The notes under the pieces are model-generated. The model was given only the letters and a program-made list of their open reading frames with translations, ran no database searches and was not told the origin of the DNA. Source: a virus (taxonomy: Duplodnaviria > Heunggongvirae > Uroviricota > Caudoviricetes). From it: a stretch of 37,657 bases of DNA. A program made the position numbers and the translations under genes. The stretch is taken from IMG/VR virus record IMGVR_UViG_2516143071_000007. The stretch is one strand, 5' to 3'. Within the stretch, counting starts at the first letter, position 1. Every line of letters starts with the position of its first letter. Positions 26,716-33,220 of this stretch are shown here, piece after piece.

Positions 26716-26758
26716 AAGGATAAAGCCATCGATAGAAATATTGATGGCTTCATGTACT

Positions 26759-27364
26759 CTATTTATACAATACAACACCGCTCTTTTTTGTTATATATGT
26801 GCAGTTCGATGGTATATCTTTATTTATAAAAGACATTGCACCTATTTTTACATTATCCCCAATTTTACGTGATAATCCAATGATGCAACAATTGGCTCCG
26901 ATATCAACGTTATTACCAATTTTTACTCTTGAACCAGGCATGTCACCATCTATCTGTCCAATGGTAGTATTCTGTCGTAACACCAGATTTTCACCAGCAT
27001 CAACAGCAAAATGAACAACAATTCCAGCATGATGGGGAATTGTTAACCCTTTTCCAATATTTGCGCCCAATCCAATTTCACAACCAAATTTGTTAATTAT
27101 TTTACCGTTTAACTTTTTGGCTGCTTTCTTATGTAATTTATTACCATTAATATACATTTCGTTAGCCAACCGCCACCAGAAAAGGAAATTCCGGTTACGC
27201 TGTTTTTTCTCTCTTAAAAGCCTCCAGATATCCATACGTTTCCGCCGAATTACTTCATATTTCCAGAAGTTTTTTAAATTAGTAGAGTCCCCAAATAAAA
27301 CAAAGTGAATTGCCATTAAGTAAGACAGCACGATAATCTCCTTAATTATTATTTCAGACCACAC
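26759..27364 (-). CDS. Hexapeptide-repeat (left-handed beta-helix) O-acetyltransferase, CysE/WcaB-like; AT-rich cargo
   Basis: IGxxxxIG hexapeptide repeats (IGLGANIGKGLTIPHHAGIVV..., IGNNVDIGANCCIIG, IGDNVKIGAMS); start uncertain (27364 or internal ATG 27316); strongly AT-rich. Confidence 0.65.
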   Translation of the reverse strand: MWSEIIIKEIIVLSYLMAIHFVLFGDSTNLKNFWKYEVIRRKRMDIWRLLREKKQRNRNFLFWWRLANEMYINGNKLHKKAAKKLNGKIINKFGCEIGLGANIGKGLTIPHHAGIVVHFAVDAGENLVLRQNTTIGQIDGDMPGSRVKIGNNVDIGANCCIIGLSRKIGDNVKIGAMSFINKDIPSNCTYITKKSGVVLYK

Positions 27365-27487
27365 ATATTATAAGGTTAAGAGATTATAAAATCCTGTTGT
27401 TTATTATTCAAAAACAATTTTCTGAGAAGGACATACAACAGCAAGTCGCCAGTCACCTTCATCAGGAAATTGGCGACATACGTTAAA

Positions 27488-27976
27488 TCAGAGCAGCCCC
27501 TTAACTGAGCTGGCCGCGCTATTAAGGGATGATGTCACCTTATCTTTGAAGCCGGACAACATATCGCTGAACGATGAGGATTGCAGGCGCTCCCGCAAAT
27601 CCTCATCACAGCGTTCAAGAGTCAGTGAAAATTCTATCTTTTTCGCCTTACCGTAGCGATCAAACTCGGAACGGGTCGTATTCGTTTCAGTCAGTACATA
27701 CATGCCGTAAATCTGCCCGACACCATCAATCAGAGGCCAGGGCCGTCCTGTATATGCCTGCGTGGTCAGCAATGAAAGCGACACTTCGCCACCTGTAATT
27801 TCAGGATAAAGCACGCCGGAAAGCACAATGCGATCATCACCTGCACCGATATACTGCCAGCTTGCTGAACGGTTAACGCGTTCATTTTTCACATGCCGCC
27901 AGCTTTTGTTTTGCTGTAACTGCTGATGCGGCAATGTGCGCAGCTCAAAAACAAACATGCCGTAGATCATCATCAT
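27488..27976 (-). CDS. U: Tail protein, P2 gpU family
   Basis: MMIYGMFVFELRTLP...WRH resembles recalled P2 gpU N-terminus; exact start among four clustered ATGs (27982-27971) uncertain. Confidence 0.8.
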   Translation of the reverse strand: MMMIYGMFVFELRTLPHQQLQQNKSWRHVKNERVNRSASWQYIGAGDDRIVLSGVLYPEITGGEVSLSLLTTQAYTGRPWPLIDGVGQIYGMYVLTETNTTRSEFDRYGKAKKIEFSLTLERCDEDLRERLQSSSFSDMLSGFKDKVTSSLNSAASSVKGLL

Positions 27977-27988
27977 GACCATGACTCC

Positions 27989-31019: not shown

Positions 31020-31312
31020 AACTGAATAAAGTCACGGGATGCCATTTTTTTGATCGTCACTTCATCCAGTCGCGGTGATGTCACGCGTGACAGCAGCGTA
31101 AACATGGATTCCGCTTTCAGATTCAGCACATCAGACAGCGACAAATCTCGCAGAGATCCAGCCTGCTCAATAGCTCCGGTGATCTCCACATACGTGATTT
31201 TTTCGCCGCCTCGCTCAATTGGTTGGGTAAGTTTTACGCCACGCTCACTGGTTTCTTTCACAGTGTCAGCAACGACCGTGTTTTCGGTATCGATGTTTTT
31301 CGTCTCTTTCAT
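30947..31312 (-). CDS. E: Tail assembly chaperone, P2 gpE family
   Basis: Position between FII and T; AAAGGAG Shine-Dalgarno; contains T TTT TTG slippery heptamer near its 3' end. Confidence 0.8.
   Translation of the reverse strand: MKETKNIDTENTVVADTVKETSERGVKLTQPIERGGEKITYVEITGAIEQAGSLRDLSLSDVLNLKAESMFTLLSRVTSPRLDEVTIKKMASRDFIQLCAVAVNFLSGADSGGKNEQATEA
30995..31001 (-). other. Slippery heptamer TTTTTTG for -1 programmed frameshift (E to E')
   Basis: Plus-strand CAAAAAA at 30995-31001; in E frame reads AAT TTT TTG. Confidence 0.7.
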
Positions 31313-31366
31313 CAGGAAACTCCTTTCAGTCAGAGGCGACGCACTGCGCCGCCTGCATATTACTTA

Positions 31367-31879
31367 TCAGCCAAGCCCAAGCGCGGAACGGATGCGATCG
31401 GGCACAATGTCCTTGCCGTCCTTCCGGTAAATGAAGTTCAGCAGGTCAATCTCCCACAACGGGCGATCGTTAACACTCAGCTTGTAGTAGGTGTTTTTAA
31501 TGGCGTAAGTGTGTGATGTGGCTTCGCCCTGTTTGGCTTCCCCCATATCAATTTCCGTCACACGTCCGCGCATCTCGATTTCATACAGATCGCTTTCTGC
31601 ATCGGTGTAGTATTCACCCGCAAAACGCAGCAGCGTGCCGTCAATCGTGCCGCCATATTTAAGGAACAGCGCACGAACAGCTCCCCCCATAACAAAACTC
31701 GCATCAAGCGCGGAGTCGTCCAGACCGAGATCAATACTTACCGCCCCCATCATGCCACCACCACGATAGCTGTCGGTTTTGCGCGTCAGTTTAGGCAGGG
31801 TAACGGACGTCACCTTACCCACTTCGTTTTCACCATCCACAAACAGCGTAAAAAAGCGAAGATGTTTTGGTACAGCCAT
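31367..31879 (-). CDS. FII: Tail tube protein, P2 gpFII family
   Basis: 170 aa, start overlaps FI stop (TGATG), synteny. Confidence 0.85.
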   Translation of the reverse strand: MAVPKHLRFFTLFVDGENEVGKVTSVTLPKLTRKTDSYRGGGMMGAVSIDLGLDDSALDASFVMGGAVRALFLKYGGTIDGTLLRFAGEYYTDAESDLYEIEMRGRVTEIDMGEAKQGEATSHTYAIKNTYYKLSVNDRPLWEIDLLNFIYRKDGKDIVPDRIRSALGLG

Positions 31880-33063
31880 CAGACACCTCCCAGCACCGCA
31901 AATGCGGGACCAAAGAATTCATCAGTAAACGACTGGTAAAGCTCCATGTCTTCCAGCGGGGGAACAGGCGTATATTTGTAGCGAATACGCACGCGCCCCT
32001 GACGTAAATTCGTGGTGCCGTTATCCACCACGTCATACCAGCACGACGCCCCAATCAGTTTCCCGGCAGTAACCAGTGAATCCAGTTTTGCCCTGATGGC
32101 ACTGATAACATCTTTCACGTTCGCAGGCGTCAGTGGACTGTCGATGGTTTCAAACTGCGCTTCCGCAATTGAATCAGCCAGCACCTGTGCGGTTCGGGTA
32201 TACACCTCAAAGATGTAGGCGTTCGTTTCCGGTGTGCGGTTGCCCCAGAAGCGGAACCCGTTGCGACGAATAATGGTCGTGATTTCTTTGTTGTTGAGGC
32301 TATTGGCATCGCTGTCTTCGGCCTGCAACGACCAGAACACATGCCTGGACATCCCCAGCACATTTTTAACCGGAACGTTGGACAGTGATTTGTGCCATCC
32401 CTGCTCATGGTCAATGTACGCACGAAGGCCGCACGCATAGGCAGGCGCGGGGAACGTTTCGTTTTTGCCACTTTTCGGGTTGTAGGCGATGAAGTCCGGC
32501 CATAAGAGCATCACCTCACGTTCGTTGAATTTCTGGCGGTAGGTAATCGCCTCAGCCATCGTGTTACAGCCGTGACATGAGGCATACACAAACGCGCGCA
32601 GTTTACCCGCAATCACGCACAGGGATTTTGTCACCGCCTCCGTGTCCAGCTCCGGCGCGGCCAGAATACGCGGACGGTATCCGATGCTTTCATCCTGCTC
32701 TGCAACAAGCAGCGCATACATCCCCGTATAGCTGCCGTCAGATTCAGAACCACCGATAACCAGTTGATCCTGCGTCTTTCCGTCTTCTTCTTTGTGTTCA
32801 GCCACGCGAACGACGATCACCTTTGTGCTCACCTGGTCTGCGATGGCCTTAAGCGCACGATAAAGCGTCCCCGTTGTTCCGCATTTTCCCAGCACGTCAT
32901 TAACGCGGGTCAGCAGTGTGGGCTTGTTCAGCGGGAACAGCTTCGCGTCCGCATCATCCGCCGTTGCCACGATACCGATAACGCTGGAATCAACATCGTT
33001 AATCGCTGTTACCAGGTCGGTATTTTCCGTAACACGGGCACCATGAAAACGAGTTTCACTCAT
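31879..33063 (-). CDS. FI: Tail sheath protein, P2 gpFI family
   Basis: 394 aa, first gene of the minus-strand tail block, AAGGGG upstream. Confidence 0.85.
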   Translation of the reverse strand: MSETRFHGARVTENTDLVTAINDVDSSVIGIVATADDADAKLFPLNKPTLLTRVNDVLGKCGTTGTLYRALKAIADQVSTKVIVVRVAEHKEEDGKTQDQLVIGGSESDGSYTGMYALLVAEQDESIGYRPRILAAPELDTEAVTKSLCVIAGKLRAFVYASCHGCNTMAEAITYRQKFNEREVMLLWPDFIAYNPKSGKNETFPAPAYACGLRAYIDHEQGWHKSLSNVPVKNVLGMSRHVFWSLQAEDSDANSLNNKEITTIIRRNGFRFWGNRTPETNAYIFEVYTRTAQVLADSIAEAQFETIDSPLTPANVKDVISAIRAKLDSLVTAGKLIGASCWYDVVDNGTTNLRQGRVRIRYKYTPVPPLEDMELYQSFTDEFFGPAFAVLGGV

Positions 33064-33220
33064 AGCTTCAGCCCCTTGTATCCGTTAAATGATTCGGCAA
33101 CAATCATCACCCACCACGCGCGTAATCTCACCCCTGCGCCGTTCTCCCACCACGGCGACAACAAAAAGCAGTAACCCCCTCCGCACGCACATGCGACCAT
33201 GCCGCACAGGGAGGGAACAG

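Follow-up and report, generated by a model that had tools for sequence, protein, structure and literature searches.

The tail region and its cargo

The stretch of DNA analysed here, 37,657 nucleotides long and referred to below as the window, is the prophage found beside ihfA in E. coli O104:H4, and it is 100% identical to finished O104:H4 genomes. It is a P2-related prophage of the Peduoviridae, of the P88 type. Xuanwuvirus P88 covers 73% of positions 1-25000 at 96% identity, and 64% of positions 24000-35000 at 94.5%; the product of coverage and identity in these two sections of the window is near the genus threshold. The ICTV criterion for a genus is about 70% whole-genome nucleotide identity.

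The gene layout, established from an open reading frame map together with Pfam and PHROG matches, is the following. The plus-strand late block ends with H-G (24005-26715), that is, the tail fibre gene H (24005-26137; Phage_tail_fib, Phage_fiber_2 and Collar) and the gene for the tail-fibre assembly protein, G/tfa (26137-26715; Caudo_TAP). Beyond it, the minus strand carries U (27488-27982; Phage_P2_GpU), T (27989-30796/30832; PhageMin_Tail), E' (30783-30938) and E (30947-31312), both placed by PHROG tail families, the tube gene FII (31367-31879; Phage_tube) and the sheath gene FI (31879-33063; Phage_sheath_1). The plus strand then resumes with D, the baseplate hub of 369 amino acids (33221-34330; Phage_GPD, phrog_52), and with ogr, which encodes the late-gene activator of 86 amino acids (37066-37326; Ogr_Delta). 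Every gene is intact in the tail operon from FI to U (27488-33063) and in D: PF04984, PF17482, PF04985, PF10145, PF06995 and PF05954 all score above cut-off, so that the sheath (FI), the tube (FII), the tape measure (T), gpU and gpD are all accounted for. By direct reading of the sequence, a slippery heptamer TTTTTTG lies near the 3' end of E (31001-30995, minus strand), where a -1 frameshift would produce, besides the chaperone E, the chaperone E+E'; the P2 record has its frameshift at the equivalent place. Directly after the stop codon of U, a hairpin (27445-27477, minus strand) is predicted to fold at -22 kcal/mol (z -5.3; 0 of 200 shuffles fold as well) and is a candidate terminator of the F transcript.

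The original prediction placed the start of D at 33221 and the spacer upstream of it at 33064-33220, and rightly so, since ATG 33221 and its GGAGG are conserved among the aligned relatives; D is 99% identical to the D of P88 over residues 1-368. Automated annotation mis-starts D in these prophages. The longest open reading frame begins at 33089, a start that we rejected because the indels of relatives are not multiples of three there and coding conservation is absent, and the PGAP start at 33530 is unsupported in view of the conserved GGAGG and ATG at 33221. In most relatives ogr follows D after about 45 bp, whereas in the window a DUF3800 gene and an IS5 element lie between the two. This IS5 copy has about 44 single-base insertions compared with a finished genome, the source assembly being imperfect at repeats.

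Between G and U, the minus strand encodes a hexapeptide-repeat O-acetyltransferase, CysE/WcaB/EpsC-like (26759-27331, the latter being the PGAP start; the frame is open to 27364), with a weak match to Hexapep, a match to phrog_2154 and NCBIfam matches that are all below cut-off. Its GC content is low (38-42%). A consensus scan, and that only, gives it a sigma-70-type promoter candidate of its own (TTGAAT, 17 bp, TATAAT; 27383-27411, minus strand; 10 of 12 matches), and a hairpin with a 12-bp stem (26723-26750), lying between the convergent G and acetyltransferase genes, has predicted folding energies of -16.4 kcal/mol on one strand and -15.6 kcal/mol on the other, each with a z of about -4.6, and may act as a bidirectional terminator. 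From about position 25524 onward the DNA matches the fibre cassettes of P1-like phages at 96-97% identity, and the fibre-tfa-acetyltransferase arrangement is also found in Punavirus Ro157c2YLVW; it is a cassette common to P1-like and lambdoid phages. The acetyltransferase had been taken for downstream cargo of the F operon. Its own promoter candidate, its position behind the hairpin that follows U and its membership of the fibre cassette speak against this: it is separate cargo, outside the tail operon, that travels with the tail-fibre cassette. PADLOC found nothing for the acetyltransferase, the DUF3800 protein or other cargo.

Orientation of the FI-U block

The open reading frames and their Pfam and PHROG matches bear out the observation from which the original prediction set off, namely that U, T, E/E', FII and FI, with the acetyltransferase, occupy the minus strand, while H-G on one side of them and D on the other are on the plus strand. 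It was also right to describe the maps of P2 and 186 as co-directional: in the annotated records of P2, 186 and Fels-2, the genes H, G, FI, FII, E, T, U, D and ogr lie on one strand. The window does not have this canonical unit, in which FI through D follow H-G in a single direction. What it has is the P88-type order, with G on the plus strand, a cargo slot, U to FI on the minus strand, and D and ogr on the plus strand behind a spacer of about 157-200 bp.

This order is widespread. It is found with identical strands in P88, 500465-2, SEN4 and 3LV2017, which represent four ICTV genera (the genera with P88-type architecture being Xuanwuvirus, Gemsvirus, Senquatrovirus and Reginaelenavirus), and in about 45 D-containing loci of Enterobacterales, from Salmonella, Klebsiella, Enterobacter, Serratia, Erwinia, Pantoea, Edwardsiella, Pectobacterium and others. 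In these loci D is 65-99% identical, whereas the D of P2, 186 and Fels-2, which have the canonical order, is only 49-54% identical. Among 5,426 complete E. coli genomes, 1,355 contain the FI/D junction. A synthetic canonical U-D junction, by contrast, was found in none of the 1,415 E. coli genomes that carry these U and D genes. Three of the phages that share the orientation exactly are known as phage producers: P88 forms plaques, with a burst size of about 65 and a contractile tail seen by electron microscopy (PMC5285337), phiSM is plaque-forming (PMC6456863), and P884B11 was isolated as a temperate phage (PMC6969025).

It follows from these relatives that one reading is already refuted, by which this very prophage underwent a recent inversion, about 6.5 kb long, that orphaned D from its promoter and left the phage defective; we give it next to no credence. 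The only thing that recommends it is the contrast with the maps of P2, 186 and Fels-2. Against it stand the identical architecture of plaque-forming P88 and phiSM and of P884B11, its recurrence in the Enterobacterales loci and complete E. coli genomes counted above, tail genes that are all intact (the E/E' frameshift site included), and the conserved promoter elements of the spacer, described below. The inversion was proposed with the proviso that phage-producing close relatives of the same orientation would count against it, and P88, phiSM and P884B11 are such relatives. Part of the claim survives: FI-U is inverted relative to P2, 186 and Fels-2. The event was neither recent nor damaging, and the segment was smaller than 6.5 kb. 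Since homology to P88-type phages in this region is confined to 27482-34330, which excludes the acetyltransferase, the ancestral inverted unit would have measured about 5.7 kb, from the stop codon of U to the Ogr box.

The insertions in the IS5 copy could make one suspect that the orientation is an artefact of the source assembly. This is, however, exceedingly improbable: both junctions are 100% identical in at least eight independently finished O104:H4-related genomes, deposited phage genomes have the same order, and the junctions offer no repeats that could mislead an assembler. An equally negligible probability attaches to a programmed switch, in which the block would be an invertible segment flipped by a Gin/Cin-type invertase. 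In P88, 500465-2 and phiSM the stretch from G to U does contain a DNA invertase gene, together with an alternative fibre segment, but their invertase serves that short fibre segment, and the window has no invertase between G and U. A search for inverted repeats around the block returned only short chance pairs, none of them at the junctions or flanking 27488-33160, and the alternative U-D junction is absent from all 1,415 genomes. The hallmarks of Gin, Cin and Hin systems, which are an adjacent serine invertase, inverted crossover sites and both orientations among relatives, are thus lacking here.

The "inverted" block is real: it is the fixed and usual arrangement in a large group of functional P2-related phages, and neither a recent inversion nor a lesion nor an artefact of assembly. 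The original prediction had allowed for this, offering as its alternative a rearranged but functional late architecture, and the viable P88-type relatives show that this alternative was the correct one. The layout is present in deposited P88-type genomes; the paper on P88 makes no mention of the orientation (PMC5285337), and our literature search found no paper on the inversion or on an FI/D promoter.

The spacer between FI and D

With FI-U on the opposite strand, D is separated from the F-operon transcript, as had been foreseen, and the independent promoter that was expected for it in 33064-33220 has a good, conserved candidate there. This spacer is 157 bp long, the same length as in P88. It contains a single Ogr-type activator box, TCT-N12-ACA (33143-33160, centre 33151.5), extended as ACAACAAAAAGC. 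The consensus of the P2 Ogr/Delta box is TGT-N12-ACA (PMC3931495). Relatives have T[G/C]T-N12-ACA in the same alignment column; TCT in place of TGT is found in the window and in about half of them, and many have TGT. An exact search of the window for TGT-N12-ACA returned nothing at the late spacers and missed this box because of its TCT, so that only the alignment of relatives made it visible. A dyad box upstream of a -10 element without a -35, by which Ogr/Delta-type promoters are recognised, is therefore present with one mismatch.

Two -10 elements flank the box. To the left, on the minus strand, GATGAT (33103-33108) is the putative -10 of a late promoter, PF, with a predicted start at about 33096. 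To the right, on the plus strand, TGcGACCAT (33192-33200) is the putative extended -10 of a second late promoter, PD, with a predicted start at about 33207 and thus a short predicted leader for D of about 14 nt. On both sides the hexamer starts 43.5 bp from the centre of the box, and this double offset is kept in about 40 of 45 unique sequences; the geometry is seen in about 43 relatives. When 23 diverged spacers are aligned, the only conserved blocks are the box, the two -10 elements and two ribosome-binding sites; the A at -11 and the AT at -8/-7 of the left element are invariant, as are the TG, the A at -11 and the T at -7 of the right one. A generic sigma-70 scan found no promoter in the spacer, as is expected of activator-dependent promoters that have no -35.

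The extended pattern TST-N12-ACAACAA occurs in the window only in this spacer and in the P-O spacer (13753-13774), with 0.13 occurrences expected, a statistic that is partly post hoc. The P-O spacer has the same extended box with matching -10 elements. A further motif that the two spacers have in common, TTGTATC, was set aside, since relatives do not conserve it.

On the strength of these motifs and by analogy with P2, D most likely has its own Ogr-dependent late promoter, with one activator site that also serves the promoter of the sheath gene. One could object that the order is indeed typical of the lineage but that D is not driven from the common box, its transcript coming instead from an Ogr-independent promoter or from a start further upstream. 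The left -10 region reads -10-like on both strands, so that its strand assignment depends on geometry: on the plus strand, 33102-33107 reads AATCAT in the window and GATAAT in relatives. Moreover, the TGn of the extended -10 of PD could allow it to work without an activator, and PF and PD are themselves predictions. We nonetheless regard this objection as unlikely to hold. The 43.5-bp symmetry is conserved exactly though most other positions of the spacer differ, it equals the mapped geometry of P2 PP/PO, and D is a structural late protein that is needed together with the products of FI-U. In addition, the alignment, read directly, has no -35 at usable spacing upstream of the plus-strand hexamer.

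To return to the shared activator site, neither V nor R was found to have an Ogr-type box of this geometry upstream of it in the window, and for this reason the late programme may be run from few sites. We lean, if only slightly, towards a scheme in which two bidirectional activator sites (33143-33160 for PF/PD and 13753-13770 for PP/PO) might run the whole of it, D-ogr would form an Ogr-activated positive-feedback unit, and D would have captured the palindromic Ogr box of PF after the ancestral inversion. To our knowledge, such a two-site late design is undescribed for P88-type phages.

A likely history and its known counterparts

We consider it highly probable that the account as a whole is right, that is, a P88-type prophage with an old, fixed FI-U inversion, a single Ogr box for the divergent PF and PD, and an independent acetyltransferase cargo. 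An old inversion, fixed across the lineage, would have turned the FI-FII-E/E'-T-U unit around, giving the order V-W-J-I-H-G on the plus strand, a cargo slot, U to FI on the minus strand, and D-ogr on the plus strand. We infer one breakpoint between U and D and another just upstream of the PF activator site; with breakpoints at these positions, the palindromic Ogr box would have ended between FI and D. The 157-bp spacer may now act like the PP/PO region of P2, with a single box lying some 55 bp ahead of each of two divergent late promoters: PF would drive FI to U leftward, and PD would drive D rightward and, in relatives, ogr as well. The acetyltransferase would be independent cargo, under its own promoter, in the slot that holds the invertase and alternative fibre segment in relatives.

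The value of these results lies mainly in a correction. Finding FI-U on the other strand from H-G and D is no ground for calling a prophage rearranged or defective, because the layout occurs in about one in four complete E. coli genomes, and phages that have it are viable. The FI-D spacer may also be a compact natural case in which an inversion set a gene beside a palindromic activator site, and the gene acquired a mirror-image promoter.

The closest counterparts of the window are P88 and its allies, by which we mean Xuanwuvirus P88 and P884B11, Gemsvirus 500465-2 and Citrobacter phage phiSM. They agree with the window in gene order and strands all the way from V to ogr, and their FI-D spacer, likewise of 157 bp, has the same box and -10 elements; nucleotide identity is 92-97% across 27482-34330 and about 96% for most of the remaining genome. 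The tail operon alone (27488-33063) is 92-97% identical to those of P88, 500465-2 and PhiR44_2. Between G and U, however, the window has an acetyltransferase where the allies have an invertase with an alternative fibre segment, its fibre C-terminus and tfa come from another cassette, and its D and ogr are parted by the DUF3800 gene and IS5.

With the F operon of P2, 186 and Fels-2 (FI FII E E' T U D, from promoter PF / pJ), the window has in common the protein families, the internal order from FI to U, the E/E' frameshift, an Ogr-type activator and a box of the TGT-N12-ACA type that precedes the predicted FI start by about 55 bp. It differs in that FI-U is inverted relative to H-G and D, and in that D, instead of being translationally coupled to U, is divergent from FI and has its own putative promoter. 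The counterpart of the spacer itself is the PP/PO region of P2, whose record gives PP and PO one activator site, with a start 55.5 bp away in each direction and the PO hexamer at 43.5 bp from its centre. Both have one dyad box between divergent promoters whose starts are 111 bp apart, starts and activator binding being mapped in P2 and predicted in the window. The P-O spacer of the window has the same design as P2 PP/PO, but in the window this design would also serve FI and D, two genes that belong to a single transcription unit in P2.

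Orientation and distribution of the tail block

Our gene list, built from the ORF list and from Pfam and PHROG scans of the window, confirms the orientation described in the original prediction. H (24005-26137) and G, or tfa (26137-26715), lie on the plus strand. The minus strand then carries a hexapeptide acetyltransferase gene (26759-27331, ORF open to 27364), U (27488-27982), T (27989-30796), E' (30783-30938), E (30947-31312), FII (31367-31879) and FI (31879-33063), after which D (33221-34330) and ogr (37066-37326) return to the plus strand. In the annotated records of P2, 186 and Fels-2, by contrast, H, G, FI, FII, E, T, U, D and ogr/B share one strand. 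Every tail gene in the window is intact, and the slippery heptamer TTTTTTG of E/E' stands at 31001-30995 on the minus strand. Annotations of the D start disagree across 33089-33530: the longest ORF begins at 33089 (413 aa), as annotated in phage 500465-2, and PGAP places the start at 33530 (266 aa) in O104:H4, along with a spurious opposite-strand pseudogene. Sequence conservation supports 33221 (369 aa).

Across 27482-34330 the window shares 92-97% identity with Escherichia phage P88, Xuanwuvirus P884B11, Citrobacter phage phiSM and Escherichia phages 500465-2, 503458, 520873, PhiR44_2 and Chuche, and the remaining window matches these P88-type phages at about 96% identity. The records of P88 and 500465-2 have the order and strands of the window (fiber genes on the plus strand, U, T, E', E, FII and FI on the minus strand, D on the plus strand), as do those of Salmonella phage SEN4 (Senquatrovirus) and Klebsiella phage 3LV2017 (Reginaelenavirus), so that the layout covers at least four ICTV genera. 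A scan for D in species-representative genomes yielded 47 loci, whose orientation was judged by tblastn with the window's tail proteins. In nearly all loci of sufficient length, V-W-J-I-H share the strand of D and U-T-E-FII-FI run opposite; in one locus, I and H are found on the minus strand. Among the hosts are Salmonella, Klebsiella, Enterobacter, Citrobacter, Kosakonia, Serratia, Erwinia, Pantoea, Pectobacterium, Brenneria, Edwardsiella and Symbiopectobacterium. D identity across these loci is 65-99%; the D proteins of P2 and Fels-2, which keep the canonical order, are just 49-54% identical to the window's. Among complete E. coli genomes, 1,355 of 5,426 contain the FI/D junction (32800-33500, coverage of at least 80%). 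E. coli O104:H4 FDAARGOS_349, in which the prophage adjoins ihfA-pheT, matches the window without a difference from 20800 to 35843.

Phages with this layout are viable. P88 is inducible with mitomycin C and forms plaques, its burst size is about 65, and its tail, about 137 nm, is contractile (PMC5285337); phiSM is released spontaneously from C. rodentium and plaques on E. coli K-12 (PMC6456863); and the temperate phages from infant E. coli strains included a P88-type phage (PMC6969025). The original prediction named phage-producing close relatives of the same orientation as evidence that would count against it, and these phages are such relatives. Together with the spread of the orientation across genera, species and those 1,355 genomes, they contradict a recent, damaging inversion in this prophage. 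The observation itself is real, and its interpretation partly right. An assembly artefact is likewise contradicted by these viable relatives and by the spread of the layout through phage records and complete genomes. Nor does the FI-U block behave as an invertase-driven switch: a search around it found no flanking inverted repeats, and a synthetic canonical junction (U 3' end joined to D 5' end) was found in 0 of the 1,415 E. coli genomes carrying these genes. We are therefore nearly certain that the layout is the typical architecture of its lineage.

Cargo and passenger genes

Homology to P88-type phages ends at 27482, six bases past the U stop, and behind U lies a strong hairpin (27445-27477, -22 kcal/mol, z -5.3). 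The acetyltransferase gene, of low GC, has a near-consensus promoter candidate (TTGAAT-17-TATAAT, 27411-27383), and a 12-bp hairpin lies between it and G. Together with the fiber C-terminus and tfa (about 25524-27331), it is 96-97% identical to a cassette of the P1-like phages JL22 and Ro157c2YLVW, which show the same convergent arrangement; the fiber and tfa part is common in lambdoid phages at 87-92% identity. P88 and its allies carry instead an alternative fiber segment and a DNA invertase in this slot. The G-acetyltransferase-U junction occurs in 495 complete E. coli genomes, and the acetyltransferase is cargo separate from the tail operon.

The gap between D and ogr measures about 45 bp in most relatives; here the slot is occupied by a DUF3800 gene (34422-35591, minus strand; 389 aa, phrog_12991) in an island of 33-38% GC. 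Its product, for which PADLOC and NCBIfam gave no match, may be cargo or a defence-type moron. Between this gene and ogr lies an IS5-family element (ISKpn26-like, about 35781-37019) with CTAG target duplications. Compared with the finished O104:H4 genome, this copy has about 44 single-base insertions that split the transposase into many frames; the 15 kb before it are identical. The insertions look like consensus error in a draft-assembly repeat and not biology. Elsewhere, a ParM-type actin-like segregation protein in the early region (8385-9344, plus strand), annotated also in P88 and phiSM, hints at a plasmid-like maintenance capacity, and a Hok/Gef-family toxin gene (37474-37614, plus strand) marks the right end of the prophage, directly before ihfA in O104:H4 and at the equivalent place in P88 and 500465-2.

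Predicted late promoters

An alignment of the FI-D spacer (33064-33220) from 23 diverged relatives contains five conserved blocks amid mostly variable positions. The outer two are the FI ribosome-binding site with its leader and the D ribosome-binding site with its ATG. Between them lie a minus-strand hexamer (GATTAT, GAATAT or GATGAT; A at -11 and AT at -8/-7 invariant), a box T[G/C]T-N12-ACAACAAA, and a plus-strand TGnNANNNT whose TG, A and T are invariant, an extended -10 pattern. In the window, the box TCT-N12-ACA (33143-33160) is centered at 33151.5, and both the left hexamer GATGAT (33108 down to 33103, minus strand) and the hexamer (33195-33200) of the right element TGcGACCAT (33192-33200, plus strand) start 43.5 bp from that center. 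In a scripted check across the loci, about 40 of 45 unique spacers had the same box with hexamers at this distance on both sides; the others deviate by 1 bp.

The TGT-N12-ACA consensus and the four late operons of P2 are summarized in PMC3931495. A single feature of the P2 record (3057-3087) is labeled "activator binding site; pO, pP promoters", and the mapped starts are 3016 (minus) and 3127 (plus). In the P2 sequence the dyad, TGT-N12-CCA, is centered at 3071.5; each start lies 55.5 bp from this center, and the hexamer of PO begins 43.5 bp from it. The geometry of the FI-D spacer is therefore that of the PP/PO pair. By this analogy, PF (leftward, FI to U) is predicted to start at about 33096 and PD (rightward) at about 33207, 111 bp apart. 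D is likely driven by a promoter mirroring PF across a shared palindromic box for the late-gene activator Ogr, a model of the putative pair that we favor with moderate confidence. The only live alternative, which concerns mechanism only, is that transcription of D might begin at a promoter that is independent of Ogr or lies farther upstream; the left hexamer region can also be read as a plus-strand -10. The claim that D needs a promoter of its own within this spacer is upheld, as inferred from the conserved elements and the P2 analogy.

The shared-box arrangement recurs in the P-O spacer (13689-13843), where the same extended box, TCT-N12-ACAACAA, lies at 13753-13774. Elements of the -10 type flank its core (13753-13770) on both sides, TAATCT at 43.5 bp toward P and TGcCATCAT at 44.5 bp toward O. 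The extended box occurs at just these two sites in the window versus 0.13 expected, a partly post hoc statistic. Alignment to P2 gpO and an AGAGGGG ribosome-binding site indicate that O probably starts at 13843, not at the ORF opening (13810). Neither R nor V was found to be preceded by an Ogr-type box of ±43.5-bp geometry (20400-21700), and the S-V gap is just 11 bp. O through G (about 12.9 kb) may form one late transcription unit, unlike in P2, which has a separate PV promoter. This late region also holds, 5' of R, a gene (18655-20535, plus strand) for a 626-aa protein with DUF1737, SASA sialate O-acetylesterase and DUF6645 (phrog_143) domains; the first 25 kb, queried as a whole, also matched 22 Stx1a-converting and two Stx2-converting phage records.

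A probable origin of the layout

A single inversion would account for the layout, with one breakpoint between U and D (overlapping genes in P2) and the other on the immediate upstream side of the PF box. The cargo slot 3' of G (Z/fun in P2) would have stayed beside G, now adjoining the U 3' end, and the PF box would have come to adjoin D. A breakpoint at the D 5' end would fit the weak conservation of the first 12-17 residues, the least conserved part of D among relatives. We found no paper discussing either the FI-U inversion or the promoter pair. The feature itself is the known, ordinary P88-type architecture, which a quarter of complete E. coli genomes carry; the putative PF/PD pair adds a small, testable detail and does not amount to a discovery.
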